64,000 bases of DNA from a virus. The position numbers and the translations under genes are program-made. Position 1 is the first letter of the stretch; every line of letters starts with the position of its first letter. The notes beneath the pieces are model-generated. The model saw only the letters and a program-made list of their open reading frames with translations, was not told the origin of the DNA and searched no databases. The stretch lies in the IMG/VR virus record IMGVR_UViG_3300045971_000528, positions 32,001 through 96,000 of that record. One strand, written 5' to 3'. Of the stretch, positions 603 to 47,225 are shown one piece after another.

Positions 603-1055
603 TCAGTCATTCAGGTTGCTGATGGCCCATAGGACGCGGATTTCCTTACCACTATCATTGACATCGGACAAGCGAAACAGCTTCTCTTCGATTTCGTCAA
701 TGTCACATGATGGCCATGACAGGTTTGCACCAGTGTTCCGTGACACGTAGATGTGGCGGCCTTCGCCAGCATACTTCTGGAGTTCATGGACCAGATCCTT
801 CAGGAAGAACTTAGCACGCTTCGCCAGCGGAATGCGCATCGAGTCTTCTTCCTTCTTCCAACCGCCCTTGGGTAGGAAGGTGCCACCGAACCAGGACATC
901 TCGCGGCGAACACGCGGCAAGCCATCATGGGCGCCGTTGCCGCTCCCATCAATGGTGATCTCGTACTTGGCGGCTTGGCCACGATACCACCTGACATGAT
1001 CAAGTGCAAACGATTCACGTCCAGCCTGCCCAACAGATACTTCACTCAGCTTCAT
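603..1055 (-). CDS. MKLxE-leader protein, W[FY]GG family
   Basis: Starts MKLSEVS at internal ATG; WFGGTFLPKGG motif shared with neighbours. Confidence 0.75.
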   Translation of the reverse strand: MKLSEVSVGQAGRESFALDHVRWYRGQAAKYEITIDGSGNGAHDGLPRVRREMSWFGGTFLPKGGWKKEEDSMRIPLAKRAKFFLKDLVHELQKYAGEGRHIYVSRNTGANLSWPSCDIDEIEEKLFRLSDVNDSGKEIRVLWAISNLND

Positions 1056-1521
1056 TGGAGATCCACCAGCAGATACGAGGATAGTCGAAGCGATGATTGA
1101 CAAAAGGATCCTTGACCTTTGCCATCACGCGCATTTCGGTAAGAGTGTCTTCGCCTGGACGAACAGCGCGCATCGTGTTGGTGCTCCAGGTCGGCTGGTC
1201 ATTGATGTAGACCTTGTAACCATCGGCGATCTTTGCATCAATGACCTTGGCAACTTCCTTCAGCCAGAGCATGACACGCTTCTCGAAGGTAAGACAGATG
1301 CCTTCACGTCGCTTCTCTTCGTCTGCAACACCATTGTGGAATACCAAGGTGCCGCCAAACCAGCAGCCCTCGTGTTCACGGTGCGGGGTGCGACGACCGC
1401 TAAATGAACCATTCATGACACCCATGTCTAGAGTGCGGGCAAGCTTCTTGTACCAAGCTGCATGCTCGGAGCGGAACTCTCGAGCTTCAAATGGGATGTA
1501 GGAGACCTCGTCGAGTTTCAT
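1042..1521 (-). CDS. MKLxE-leader protein, W[FY]GG family
   Basis: MKLDEVS start; CWFGGTL motif; overlaps adjacent genes. Confidence 0.8.
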   Translation of the reverse strand: MKLDEVSYIPFEAREFRSEHAAWYKKLARTLDMGVMNGSFSGRRTPHREHEGCWFGGTLVFHNGVADEEKRREGICLTFEKRVMLWLKEVAKVIDAKIADGYKVYINDQPTWSTNTMRAVRPGEDTLTEMRVMAKVKDPFVNHRFDYPRICWWISNEAE

Positions 1522-1991
1522 TTCGGTTCCGAGATGGACCAGAGGACCTTGAGCTGCATTGGAATGACGAAGCGACCATCGCCGCGCGAGACGTCCTGGT
1601 ACACACAGTCACCGACAATGTCCTCCGCCTGGCGTGGAGTGTCATCATCCTTGATGTAGTGGGGGCTGGGATTCCAGCCACGTGGGTGACTGACAATCTT
1701 GACGTAGCGATCTGGGAACTGCTTCGCTTTCTTCAACAGGAAGGACGCAAGTTGCTTCTTGAAGCCAGTGAAGCGGCGTTCAGGAGACAAGCCGATGTCA
1801 TCAACACCAGTTCTGTCAACGTCTTTGATCTCGCCGCCAATCATCCATTGGTCAGGTGAGTGAAACTCCAGCTTGCGTGTCATCAGTTTGAAGCCAAACT
1901 TCTTGACGAAGTCAGCGAACTCCTGCTGCTCGGCCTGGGCCCAGTCTGGTGCCTGCTTTGGCTTGGCTTCGAATAGTTCGATCGTCTTCAT
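1518..1991 (-). CDS. leader-bearing protein, divergent W-x-GG family
   Basis: MKTIELFE start in ATGA overlap; WMIGG motif. Confidence 0.7.
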   Translation of the reverse strand: MKTIELFEAKPKQAPDWAQAEQQEFADFVKKFGFKLMTRKLEFHSPDQWMIGGEIKDVDRTGVDDIGLSPERRFTGFKKQLASFLLKKAKQFPDRYVKIVSHPRGWNPSPHYIKDDDTPRQAEDIVGDCVYQDVSRGDGRFVIPMQLKVLWSISEPK

Positions 1992-2302
1992 GTGTGGAAT
2001 TCTGAATTGCTGAGGGTGAACCACTCGGCTCCTGAATGCGACTTCTTCTGGCGTAGCTGAAGCTTCTCGAGGTTCTTGTCGTTGATCACGATCCAACGGT
2101 TGTCCTCCAGCTTGACGGAGGTTGCACCATTACCGCCTGGATTTTGAGGAGGATCCCATTCAATAAACTTGACAATGCCGCCATCGCCCTTGTAGTAGAA
2201 GCGAACTTCCGTGCCCTTCTTGAGAAGGTTGCGCATCACCGTCAAGACGAAGGGAGCTTCGTCTGGCAGGCGATCATCTTCGAAGAGTTCAAGGACCTTC
2301 AT
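1988..2302 (-). CDS. leader-bearing paralog, P-[LF]...LLKKG..V family
   Basis: MKVLELFEDDRLPDEAPFVLT...NLLKKGTEVR; N-half nearly identical to 2299..2631. Confidence 0.8.
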   Translation of the reverse strand: MKVLELFEDDRLPDEAPFVLTVMRNLLKKGTEVRFYYKGDGGIVKFIEWDPPQNPGGNGATSVKLEDNRWIVINDKNLEKLQLRQKKSHSGAEWFTLSNSEFHT

Positions 2303-2631
2303 TTGTGGTCATCATCCGAGGGTGAACGTAGGGTGAACATGTCCTTTTGGCTAAAGGAGGACCGCTTGTTCTGAAAGAGCTTCAACTTGTCCAGGTTCAC
2401 GTCGTTGATTGTCATAGAGCCAAGACCGTAAGACAGCTCGAAGACGCTATAGCCCATTATGGTGCCTACGGTTGACGGCACCCATTCAAGCCCCTCGATC
2501 TGGCCACCTTCGCCCTTGTAGTAGACGCGAACCTCCGTGCCCTTCTTGAGCAGGTTCTTGATGATGGTCAGCACGAAGGGTGCCTCGTCAGGGAGGCGGC
2601 CTTCATCTTCGAACAGTTCAGAGACACGCAT
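2299..2631 (-). CDS. leader-bearing paralog, P-[LF]...LLKKG..V family
   Basis: MRVSELFEDEGRLPDEAPFVLT...NLLKKGTEVR. Confidence 0.8.
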   Translation of the reverse strand: MRVSELFEDEGRLPDEAPFVLTIIKNLLKKGTEVRVYYKGEGGQIEGLEWVPSTVGTIMGYSVFELSYGLGSMTINDVNLDKLKLFQNKRSSFSQKDMFTLRSPSDDDHK

Positions 2632-45387: not shown

Positions 45388-45740
45388 GCCTTGTCCTGCA
45401 CTTCCTGGAGGTTGTCAGCGAAGTTGGCCAGCATGTCACCTACGTCATACATGTCAGTGGCAAACTCTGGCGGCATTGGTGATGGCTGTGGGCGGCGGTA
45501 GATGACCTTGACGTTGTGCATGTTCTTGGGCTTCCAGTTGGGCTGTGGCATCATGACGATGTACCAGTCCCTGAAGAAACAGCCTTCGTAACCCTGCCAC
45601 TGACCGAACCTCCAGCCCTTCTGGAACAGCTCGTTGGCCAGCTTGTCATAGAGCGGGCGCACCTTCACCCCAATCTTCTTGTCCTCCATGTAGTCCATGT
45701 AGGCCATCACGTGAGCACCAGAAATTTCGTCGAGCCTCAT
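45384..45740 (-). CDS. array-3 leader-bearing paralog
   Basis: MRLDEISGAHVMAYMDYME...LFQKGW. Confidence 0.8.
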   Translation of the reverse strand: MRLDEISGAHVMAYMDYMEDKKIGVKVRPLYDKLANELFQKGWRFGQWQGYEGCFFRDWYIVMMPQPNWKPKNMHNVKVIYRRPQPSPMPPEFATDMYDVGDMLANFADNLQEVQDKA

Positions 45741-46186
45741 TCGTCATCCTCTTGATCGAAGTAGGCTGGATCGGAGTTGTACGTCTTGTAGCACCAGATG
45801 TTATCGCCATGGGCATAGCCGTGGTCGAGTGAAACGCCATGATCCTCCATGGCCTTGATGGCAGCTGCACGGCAGGATTTCTCGCTGATCGAGTATGCGT
45901 ACACGTGGAACTCAGGGGCTTCCTTCATCTCGTGGAAGCCGGCATCGGTGACGGCCATCAACAGCGGGATGTTCGTGAGGGTGGTGATGGGCACGAGGTA
46001 GCCACCGAGCAGCTTGTCGACTACTTTGGAACCTTGGGCGGAGTTTGCAGCATCCTGTGCAGCTTCATGGGATGGGAAGACCCAAACATTCTGGATGTTC
46101 TTCTGCCAGATAGATCCACGTGGCACAGCAATGAAGCCCTGCATATCGAGAGGATCACGCCAACCCAGAATCTCGAAGACCTTCAT
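45737..46186 (-). CDS. leader-bearing hypothetical protein
   Basis: MKVFEIL. Confidence 0.7.
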   Translation of the reverse strand: MKVFEILGWRDPLDMQGFIAVPRGSIWQKNIQNVWVFPSHEAAQDAANSAQGSKVVDKLLGGYLVPITTLTNIPLLMAVTDAGFHEMKEAPEFHVYAYSISEKSCRAAAIKAMEDHGVSLDHGYAHGDNIWCYKTYNSDPAYFDQEDDE

Positions 46187-46590
46187 CGAGCGAATGCCTT
46201 CGTTAGGTAATCGCTTAGCTGGCTAGCTGCGTGAAGATCCTTGTTGAGCTTATCCCAATCAATGTTGGCAGCTTGCTTGACGGTCGTCTTGTCGATCAGC
46301 GCATTGATGCCATCATGGAGATCATAGACAATGTTCTCGACATCAGTGAGGAAGATGAACTCGAAGCCTGAGGCATGGCGATTCAGGAGCATCGCGATGT
46401 TGAAGAACGGCATAGCAAACTCGATCTCGTCATCTTCAATGGTGATGTCGGCACCGGCCTTGATGAGCTTCATGCAGAGTGTCTGATGATCAGCGATGAC
46501 CTGGGGATCGACGCCTTGATCATGCAGTTGCTGAAGAGCTTCGCCCACATCTGCTGCGGCACCGCCGCCTGAGACTTCGTCGAGTTTCAT
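46183..46590 (-). CDS. leader-bearing hypothetical protein
   Basis: MKLDEVS. Confidence 0.7.
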   Translation of the reverse strand: MKLDEVSGGGAAADVGEALQQLHDQGVDPQVIADHQTLCMKLIKAGADITIEDDEIEFAMPFFNIAMLLNRHASGFEFIFLTDVENIVYDLHDGINALIDKTTVKQAANIDWDKLNKDLHAASQLSDYLTKAFAR

Positions 46591-47225
46591 AGGTTCGTCA
46601 GATCGATGATGTCGAGTCGCTTGAAGACGGCTGACTTGTGGATGCCCTTGAAGAAGCCGCCAGGCATGACAAGCTCTTCTTCAGCTGACTGACCAGCAGT
46701 GTGGTAGAGCAGGCCGAAGAACATCTCGTCCCTGAACTTGTTCCACACCTGCGAGAAGGCGTGCTCGTGTCCAGGATTTTCGTCGTCGAACTCTTGTCCG
46801 GTTGCTTGTTTGAATTCACGGTCCCACACCCCATTGAAAGCTTCTTCACCGATCCAGGCATCATAGCCCATGTAGAGGCCATTGTCTTCAGGACGGTAGC
46901 CCACGAACACGAGAGACTTGTCATCGACGGGTGATGAGAAGCTGAAGGCGTGATGTGGCTTGCGGGAGCCCTTCACCTTAGACAGATCCATCTCGATTTC
47001 GACTTCAATGCCGTCAGAGCGCTTCAGCAGACGCATCACTCGGTTTTGGGCATTGTCGATGGCAGGACCATCCTCACCATCACCAAAGACCAACTGGCCC
47101 TTGTAGGTGAGTGCGTTCTTCTTGGCACGCATGGCCTTGACGTAGGTGTTCTTGTAGAACCTGACGAGGTCACCTAGTTCGACTAGGTTAGCTGCGTCTT
47201 CCGAGAGCAGTTCATTGATCTTCAT
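46587..47225 (-). CDS. leader-bearing hypothetical protein, first of the late unit
   Basis: MKINELLSE; TAAATAG at 47249-47255. Confidence 0.75.
   Translation of the reverse strand: MKINELLSEDAANLVELGDLVRFYKNTYVKAMRAKKNALTYKGQLVFGDGEDGPAIDNAQNRVMRLLKRSDGIEVEIEMDLSKVKGSRKPHHAFSFSSPVDDKSLVFVGYRPEDNGLYMGYDAWIGEEAFNGVWDREFKQATGQEFDDENPGHEHAFSQVWNKFRDEMFFGLLYHTAGQSAEEELVMPGGFFKGIHKSAVFKRLDIIDLTNL

Follow-up and report, generated by a model that had tools for sequence, protein, structure and literature searches.

In bacteriophage T4 all internal head proteins enter the core by way of a capsid-targeting sequence (PMC5694885, PMC3012670), and gp23, gp24, Alt and the internal proteins lose their propeptides to the protease gp21 (PMC5694885), which cleaves after the Glu of an I/L-x-E motif (PMC12991175). 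Here we describe a stretch of viral DNA of 64,000 nucleotides (the window; bases 32001-96000 of the single 106,081-bp virus contig IMGVR_UViG_3300045971_000528), in which most genes of three tandem arrays begin with a short conserved N-terminal leader, M-[KR]-[LVI]-x-[EQD]-[LIV]-[LF/x]-[E/x]. On the whole, we favour the interpretation that this leader is a capsid-targeting propeptide of the T4 type, removable by the prohead protease and carried by large, diversifying families of paralogs. The finding is read as a large expansion of the targeting principle known from T4 and not as a new principle; no report was found of the variant leader, of its spread over the clade of T4-related jumbo phages to which the contig belongs, or of its scale.

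The internal proteins of T-even phages have been described as diverse defence proteins, which have in common only a capsid-targeting sequence (PMC3012670). The arrays of the window resemble these hypervariable loci in having diverse, fast-evolving payloads with nothing but the leader in common, which presumably enter with the DNA to act against host defences. They differ in consisting of large tandem families with domain duplications and fusions, in belonging to a jumbo phage of ~360 kb, and in that the payloads of the window are without any known target. In the phiKZ-like giant phages (SPN3US, phiKZ, 201phi2-1) multigene families of head-internal proteins also carry propeptides that are removed by a protease, the cleavage motif being S/A/G-x-E. 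The conserved N-termini of these families were proposed to act like a capsid-targeting sequence, and in SPN3US the propeptides of several head proteins are longer than 100 residues (PMC5694885). Most propeptides of the phiKZ-like phages are far longer than the leader described here, and the families are not homologous to those of the window. The Dar proteins of phage P1 (DarA, DarB, Hdf and others) are anti-defence proteins which likewise enter the head while it is being formed and are delivered along with the DNA, but their loading occurs by ordered protein-protein incorporation with no common short leader, and there is no sequence relationship. The head-delivered class of proteins is rich in counter-defence functions both in T4 (IPI*, Alt) and in P1 (Dar).

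The contig was estimated by CheckV to be 29% complete, which implies the genome size given above. Gene calling with a codon-usage score yielded 173 genes on the contig, and the minus strand of the window holds nearly all genes. An N-terminus of the form M[KRILM][LVIT].E[LIVF] was found in 27 of the 173 genes, 25 of them in the window, as compared with 0.49 expected for the whole contig from how often this motif occurs at internal protein positions. Thus the number given in an earlier reading of the sequence (the original prediction), about 25 such genes in arrays at 0.6-4.8, 22.3-28.2 and 44.0-47.2 kb, was borne out. At the DNA level the pattern ATGARRNTNNNNGARNTN matched 15 times in the window, where shuffles gave an expectation of 0.28, and each match is on the minus strand at a gene start of the three arrays. 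When the genes were scored with a position matrix, the distribution was bimodal, with 27 genes above 5 and every other gene below 2.5. The genes with the strict motif (hereafter tagged genes) are all located within tandem arrays, and the contig has two further arrays upstream of the window. Looser versions of the leader occur on three genes of the window (33093-33818, 35192-35416 and 27536-28225).

As read directly from the translations, the leader is 8-9 residues long, contains 2-3 acidic residues and has no hydrophobic core. The tripeptide [LVIT]-x-E is present at positions 3-5 in all 27 leaders, and [LIV]-x-E occurs also at positions 6-8 in nine. A Sec or Tat signal peptide was rejected because the leader is too short, is acidic and lacks a hydrophobic core of at least 10 residues; true signal peptides encoded by the same contig, such as MRLLPLLLLAVSL, look unlike it. 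The codons of the leader vary: Leu is encoded by CTC, CTG, CTT, CTA and TTG, Arg by CGT, CGA, CGC, AGA and AGG, Glu by GAA and GAG, and the Lys codons vary as well, with GAA used at codon 5 in 20 of the 27 leaders as compared with 47% genome-wide. Because the synonymous codons vary, selection acts on the peptide and not on the RNA, and an mRNA-level signal was rejected. It was also considered that ATGA stop-start overlaps could force Lys or Arg at position 2, but many tagged genes have no overlap, and positions 3, 5 and 6 would be left unaccounted for. In phages of 41-55% G+C the leader is kept at the level of the amino acids. Taken together, these observations show that the leader is real, exclusively N-terminal and under selection at the protein level.

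BLAST clustering divided the tagged genes into three families, designated by their motifs W[FY]GG, PL..LL.KG..V and LFK.GW, and singletons. When the profile of the W[FY]GG family was compared with that of either other family, only columns 1-7 or 1-8, that is, the leader, could be aligned. Structure prediction had been proposed as a check, and the two families that were modelled with AlphaFold have different folds, the leader being the low-confidence part in both. The W[FY]GG protein encoded at 1042-1521 was predicted to form an alpha/beta sandwich (predicted local distance difference test, pLDDT, 81; predicted template modelling score 0.78; residues 1-6 below 50), and the PL..LL.KG..V protein encoded at 1988-2302 a helix with a small beta-barrel (pLDDT 87; average of residues 1-10, 49). 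A single divergent superfamily was rejected for W[FY]GG versus the other families, since only the leader aligns and the predicted folds differ. Between the PL..LL.KG..V and LFK.GW families the profile comparison detected a weak helix-KG match (22% probability), and the two may be distant kin. Because of this match, the claim that the leader heads at least three unrelated families had to be reduced to two unrelated folds at least, together with several singletons.

No relatives of known function were recovered for the array proteins. Foldseek searches of PDB and BFVD gave no match at E 0.001 or better for either model, and a wide VIA-align search gave none at Z>=8, the best values (Z 4.0 and 6.0) being to generic small-barrel or ferredoxin-like structures. 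Twenty array proteins compared with Pfam and PHROGs gave nothing above noise, the ESM Atlas gave no usable match, and no megablast or tblastn match to the arrays was found in 50,697 GenBank phage records. Homology of the mature tagged proteins to IPI, IPII or IPIII of T4 was not detected by Pfam, PHROG, tblastn (in the same 50,697 phage records), Foldseek or VIA-align.

The distribution of the leader within the PL..LL.KG..V family follows gene starts and promoters. In the genes composed of several units (24953-26182, 26889-27539 and 27536-28225) the internal units keep the acidic stretch but never MKLxE[LI]. None of the three copies located behind a sigma-70-type promoter (28560-29454) has the leader, whereas among the 13 copies behind the TAAATA motif at 28235 eleven have it, one (27536-28225) has an L-L-E variant and one (24953-26182) has neither.

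When 1.84 billion representative proteins were searched with a profile, 102 proteins of the W[FY]GG family were found, 43 with the strict and 75 with the relaxed leader motif. Most of these representatives begin with MK[LIV]x[EQD]L[LF]E, in spite of bodies that have diverged to less than 25% identity. In the 94 representatives starting with M[KRLIMN], positions 2, 3 and 5-8 had an information content of 1.6-3.3 bits and the variable position 4 one of 0.65, and from position 9 onwards the values were about 1 bit or less; L occupies position 6 in 75 and E position 8 in 46 of them. Five representatives, in which the W[FY]GG domain is internal and follows a PL..LL.KG..V unit, align from profile position 9-11 only. 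Natural fusions of the two families (P0005, at L001:1-822, P0061, P0065 and P0100) possess a single N-terminal leader, which indicates that both families are mixed and matched as cargo modules. The leader is a module separate from the proteins behind it, lying outside the predicted folds and being common to unrelated folds.

For comparison with T4, the N-termini were read from the T4 record: MKTYQEFIAE in IPII and IPIII, MKTFKEFTST..ITE in IPI, MELITELFDE in Alt, MAKINELLRE in gp24, MLKEQLIAE in gp22 and MNEPQLLIE in gp21. When a matrix built from 162 leaders of the clade was used to score 265 called N-termini of T4, gp24 was first (8.9), and Alt, taken with its annotated start, would be second (7.9); IPII and IPIII were 13th-14th and IPI was 48th. 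By matrix score the clade leaders are thus nearest to gp24 and Alt. As in T4, the leader is a short, amphipathic and acidic N-terminal peptide with an [IL]-x-E motif on unrelated proteins, the putative late promoters are of the TATAAATA type, and the clade has a Peptidase_S77 protease and a gp55-type sigma factor (see below). In contrast to T4, the dominant leader is MKLxE[IL] and not the MKTYQEFIAE of IPII and IPIII, and it is present on 25 genes in 64 kb, and on 41 to about 50 genes in the related phage RsoM2USA, as opposed to about five in T4.

Three IMG/VR contigs (G001-G003) are syntenic relatives of the window's contig, and in these the tagged arrays are kept at 30-63% protein identity. 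The array orthologues of G001 fall in this range and the neighbouring genes are at 54%, a comparison that gives no resolution of relative evolutionary rates. G002 encodes a prohead protease of the Peptidase_S77 (T4 gp21) type (E 7e-27), a gp55-type late sigma factor (phrog_234, E 4e-31), a T4-type portal, a baseplate hub and a gp5-like protein. It has homologues of RsoM2USA proteins as well, which we take to occupy the positions of T4 gp46 and gp47. When the proteases are compared, Ralstonia phage RsoM2USA (56% identity), PA5oct and XacN1 are the nearest phages in culture. Modules consisting of protease, scaffold and major capsid protein are present in G002, in the related loci L057 and L058, and in RsoM2USA. 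In L057 a tagged gene (MKLSEII..) lies between protease and scaffold; in L058, which has 54% G+C like the window's contig, a gene starting MLLSEIL.. follows right after the capsid gene behind TATAAATAG; and in G002 a tagged leucine-rich-repeat protein is encoded just after the protease. The open reading frame (ORF) products ORF89 and ORF88 of RsoM2USA are homologues of the tagged leucine-rich-repeat proteins of G002. The portal gene of G002 (L005:2512-5361) encodes 949 residues, as compared with 554-574 in L057 and RsoM2USA, and has an insert resembling an HNH endonuclease (PHROG matches at residues 419-593), so that it may contain an intein or homing element.

In RsoM2USA the DNA pattern had 53 matches versus 2 in the control, most of them in arrays at 172-181 and 189-214 kb, and between 41 (strict motif) and about 50 genes are tagged. 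The arrays (L009; ORF274-284 and ORF301-337) contain a 38-member family of proteins of ~200 residues, which makes up roughly 9% of the genome. All members are annotated as hypothetical proteins in the record, and a term search of the RsoM2USA paper (PMC8504454) returned no mention of paralogs, duplication or gene families. A few members located on the opposite strand (199898-201683) are without the leader.

Within single BLAST families of RsoM2USA, paralogs alternate between N-termini of the MKLxEI and of the MKTFKQFL.E type, the latter being close to the leader of T4 IPI and IPIII. Most members of the 38-member family have MKLxEI and one has MSFKQWLKE; the leucine-rich-repeat family has MKLHEI (ORF88), MKTFKQFLSE (ORF89), MSFKTFLES and MAMNFKEFLNE; and a further family has MNQTFKQFLTE, MTTFKEYLTE and MKLEDLFET. 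MKTFKQFL.E heads ORF89 and ORF132, and MLTFKQY.. heads ORF438. According to the same paper, these three proteins were found in purified virions with liquid chromatography-tandem mass spectrometry of ten gel bands (PMC8504454). In PA5oct, five of the ten leader-like N-termini are on proteins that electrospray-ionization tandem mass spectrometry detected in virions, versus a baseline of 93 of 461 proteins overall, a weak enrichment (binomial p ~0.03; PMC7318152).

It had been claimed that each array starts just after a late-type TAAATAG motif, and TAAATA was indeed found before the first gene of all three. It is located 21 nt before array 1 (4849..4854, minus strand; GTAAATAG), 4 nt before array 2, in a hairpin loop (28230..28235, minus strand; CCCCGTAAATAGGGG), and 24 nt before array 3 (47250..47255, minus strand; CCGTAAATAGC). 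TAAATA occurs 45 times on the coding strand versus twice on the other, at a spacing of 4 nt or about 21-24 nt to the start codon. In RsoM2USA it lies within 45 nt upstream of 77 of the 462 genes, where ~6 would be expected; among them are the portal, baseplate and tail genes, those for virion proteins that were confirmed by mass spectrometry, and the genes with which the arrays start.

A second promoter class with a sigma-70-like extended -10 element, TGnTAnAAT, is present 17 times versus once. One promoter of this class (29461..29490, minus strand; extended -10 TGATATAAT, 6 nt before the ATG) would drive the three PL..LL.KG..V genes that have no leader (29167-29454, 28862-29197 and 28560-28865, minus strand). 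Several sigma-70-type sites have a common upstream element, GTTACAC. At 29461-29469, 20406-20414, 15823-15831, 13344-13352 and 6559-6567 (minus strand) the extended -10 element ends 5-6 nt before the ATG, and at 28230-28235, 14084-14089 and 33823-33828 TAAATA ends 4 nt before it, in both cases with no Shine-Dalgarno sequence; many first genes appear, from their sequence, to be translated from mRNAs without a 5' untranslated region. The TAAATA before array 2 forms part of the loop of a hairpin with a perfect 8-bp stem, GCATCCCC-GTAAATA-GGGGATGC (28222-28244, minus strand), and the TAAATA at ~14079-14097 is likewise within an inverted repeat. These elements may combine a promoter with a terminator or processing site.

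The events envisaged for the tagged proteins follow the example of T4. The genes would be transcribed from the TAAATA promoters by host RNA polymerase with the gp55-type late sigma factor, alongside the virion genes. The leader would attach the newly made protein to the scaffolding core of the prohead during assembly, where the gp21-type (Peptidase_S77) protease of the clade would cut behind the Glu of [LIV]-x-E, at position 5, position 8 or both. The mature protein would then remain in the head and enter the next host cell with the DNA.

The original prediction is supported in part. The capsid-targeting function that it assigned to the leader withstood all tests that were run, in view of the modularity, the likeness to gp24 and Alt, the occurrence of an S77 protease and a gp55-type sigma factor in relatives, the exchange of leader types in RsoM2USA, and the leader on an Acb1 homologue there. 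Several observations weigh against it. TAAATA is not specific to the arrays, since it precedes many other genes including tRNA and metabolic genes, and no terminator was found between the copies behind the sigma-70-type promoter and array 2; taking these two findings into account, early read-through into array 2 is possible, and exclusively late expression becomes less certain. The genes for protease, scaffold and capsid are not on the window's 106-kb contig, which is 29% complete by CheckV. T4 internal proteins are basic, whereas most of the tagged proteins are acidic (median isoelectric point 5.6; 7.7-9.0 in the W[FY]GG family). The cleavage junctions of T4 propeptides carry A, S or T at P1', and with a cut behind Glu5 this position would be occupied by L, I or V, unlike at the T4 sites. 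In the RsoM2USA paper none of the 38-member tagged family is reported among the virion proteins, which were identified from ten bands only (PMC8504454). The leader is not expanded in PA5oct or XacN1, whose protease is of the same type. That the leader is a feature of every phage with this protease type was rejected on the basis of the numbers of pattern matches, 5 in PA5oct, 2 in XacN1 and 2 in T4 versus 0-1 in the controls.

Some of these observations would also suit a docking peptide for a different partner, such as a chaperone, the membrane or ejection apparatus, or an oligomerisation partner, unrelated to the capsid. A modular leader outside the predicted folds is compatible with any targeting peptide, the cargo is mostly acidic, and the leaders of the RsoM2USA proteins detected in virions are of the MKTFKQFL.E or MLTFKQY.. 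type and not of the MKLxEI type. We consider this explanation rather unlikely, taking into account that the leader resembles the propeptides of T4 gp24 and Alt, contains the protease consensus, co-occurs with the promoter motif of virion genes, and swaps among paralogs with the MKTFKQFL.E of proteins confirmed in virions by mass spectrometry.

In another scheme the leader does direct the proteins to the prohead core, where they would serve as expendable core or scaffold accessories, similar to T4 gp67 and gp68, and would be degraded by the protease and expelled instead of being injected. The location of tagged genes inside the head modules of relatives agrees with this, as does PA5oct gp333, which is in the gp67 position, starts with MKINDIITE and was detected in virions by mass spectrometry; in T4 gp22, gp67, gp68 and gp21 all have I/L-x-E near the N-terminus (T4 record; PMC5694885). 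A scaffold, however, has no need of dozens of fast-diverging paralogs with compact, confidently predicted folds, the leader also heads an Acb1 enzyme and leucine-rich-repeat proteins, and ORF89 and ORF132 of RsoM2USA persist in mature virions (PMC8504454). We therefore regard this fate of the proteins as unlikely.

A role of the leader as a protease switch without packaging, in which the prohead protease or a host protease would trim or destroy the proteins late in infection and thereby turn them on or off in the cytoplasm, appears distinctly unlikely. It could be reconciled with the presence of an [LIV]-x-E site in every leader and with the ability of T4 gp21 to cleave soluble non-virion targets, for example the CD-NTase of the cyclic oligonucleotide-based antiphage signalling system (CBASS), but proteases of the gp21 type work within proheads and quickly inactivate themselves (PMC12991175). 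Moreover, loss of 5-8 disordered residues would hardly alter the activity of a folded domain, and relatives of tagged proteins occur in virions.

Recombination via conserved DNA of the capsid-targeting sequence has been proposed for the internal-protein loci of T-even phages. Conservation at the nucleic-acid level, as a translation (re-)initiation element or as a homology patch for recombination or gene conversion among the arrays, is very improbable here: many array genes do overlap the preceding stop codon, and both Lys at position 2 and a surplus of GAA at codon 5 are what 5' coding ends typically show, but the synonymous codons vary freely, the amino acid pattern is kept over the range of G+C contents given above, and non-array genes with the same promoters and coupling lack the leader.

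If the leader is a capsid-targeting propeptide, an effector or anti-defence role of the payloads is plausible by analogy, and the tagged Acb1 homologue and the tagged leucine-rich-repeat proteins of the relatives point in this direction. The Acb1 (anti-CBASS) homologue of RsoM2USA (PF23474, E 2e-36; L014:9535-10023, corresponding to RsoM2USA 29535-30023, minus strand) has its domain from residue 14 onwards, after the 13-residue MKVTELLDTSKPK. Acb1 was not found on the window's contig or in G001-G003. As a tentative extension, it is suggested that phages of this clade may load dozens of diversifying proteins into each head, Acb1-like counter-defence enzymes included, which would be the largest pre-packaged, injected effector repertoire known of any tailed phage.

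Acb1 of T4 (57B; L033:13953-14411) starts with MMEFKDFS.., like the MKTFKEFT.. of the adjacent ipI, and this N-terminus raises the question of whether T4 Acb1 is head-targeted too. ORF254 of RsoM2USA (L021:4332-5075), next to the terminase, is a P-loop kinase similar to Zeta toxin and AAA_33 and starts with MTTFKEYLLE, which is of the internal-protein type. Its neighbours ORF255, ORF256 and ORF258 have leader-like N-termini as well, and the four genes together may be a cluster of head-targeted enzymes.

The genes of the three arrays, all on the minus strand, are given below in the order of transcription. Array 1 begins with two W[FY]GG genes, a long form of 301 residues with the leader MLISELHE (3922..4827) and one of 285 residues with MRVTELIME (3065..3922). 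They are followed by a gene without leader (MNDVTPH; 2631..3068) for which no family was found, and by two genes of the PL..LL.KG..V family, with MRVSELFEDE (2299..2631) and MKVLELFEDD (1988..2302; the protein modelled above). The array ends with a divergent W[FY]GG member (MKTIELFEAK; 1518..1991) and two further W[FY]GG genes, with MKLDEVS (1042..1521; the other modelled protein, whose alpha/beta fold is ferredoxin-like) and MKLSEVS (603..1055).

In array 2, the first gene has the L-L-E variant MLVSHLLES and two PL..LL.KG..V units (27536..28225). The second, with MKLFELHEED, also has two units, the internal one retaining the acidic stretch without MKLxEL (26889..27539). After the genes with MKLTEITD (26491..26892) and MILSEITE (26175..26504) comes the gene of about four fused PL..LL.KG..V units, which starts with MDDMPLII and has no leader (24953..26182). 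The remaining leaders are MLLEELD (24624..24953), MKLTEIHEAD, with a TTG start (24340..24627), MKVTELFEED, which may be compared with MELITELFDED of T4 Alt (24008..24343), MRLDEIND (23698..24018), MRLDELNA (23345..23701), MRLDEISDD (23016..23348), MMLHEIED, on a divergent member (22688..23029), and MKLYEIADED, on the last gene (22347..22691).

The first three genes of array 3 are singletons: MKINELLSED, comparable to MAKINELLRES of T4 gp24 (46587..47225), MKLDEVS (46183..46590) and MKVFEIL (45737..46186). The other four belong to the LFK.GW family and have the leaders MRLDEIS (45384..45740), MKLHEIY, with two units (44677..45387), MLLAEVS (44361..44690) and MKLFEIS (43969..44364), the last adjoining the tRNA array. 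Two single genes on the same strand have looser leaders: one (33093..33818), with TAAATA 4 nt upstream, starts with MRVAQLLES, a Q-L-L-E variant seen also in metagenome relatives, and the other is an ORF of 74 residues among the tRNA genes (MILLEITD; 35192..35416) with CATAAATAGC just upstream.

The window contains 29 tRNA genes, a tRNA of the amber-suppressor type and a transfer-messenger RNA (tmRNA). Twenty-eight tRNA genes are packed at 33829-43284, directly between arrays 2 and 3, with several small ORFs and non-coding stretches interspersed; the tRNA with the CUA anticodon and the tmRNA are located beyond this dense array, at 53127-53846. In T4 the tRNA cluster is similarly flanked by ipII/ipIII and ipI, which we mention as a curiosity and not as evidence. 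Just outside the window, at contig bases 24322-28584 (window -7678 to -3416), is a fourth tagged family, of 172-220 residues. Its N-termini are MKLQQLFE, MKLNEVA, MKLTDLG and MRFKDFISE, the last being of the internal-protein type. The orthologues at L001:5068-9354 end in a conserved ..A.LKKLG[LIV], so that both ends are kept and the middle is variable, the C-termini being those read in L001 only.

Should the leader prove not to be a targeting sequence, it would still be an unusually clean conserved N-terminal module on unrelated folds. If it is one, a single short motif would identify, from sequence, the proteins that a clade of giant phages delivers ahead of gene expression, a class which is hard to find, and the leader could serve as a barcode for mining anti-defence and host-takeover proteins from metagenomes. 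It would also provide a second, shorter natural leader for packing foreign proteins into large capsids, and testable candidates would be at hand in the cultured phage RsoM2USA, which has already been studied for the biocontrol of bacterial wilt. For the phages themselves, the same interpretation would account for the share of orphan tandem paralogs in these genomes, which reaches about a tenth.

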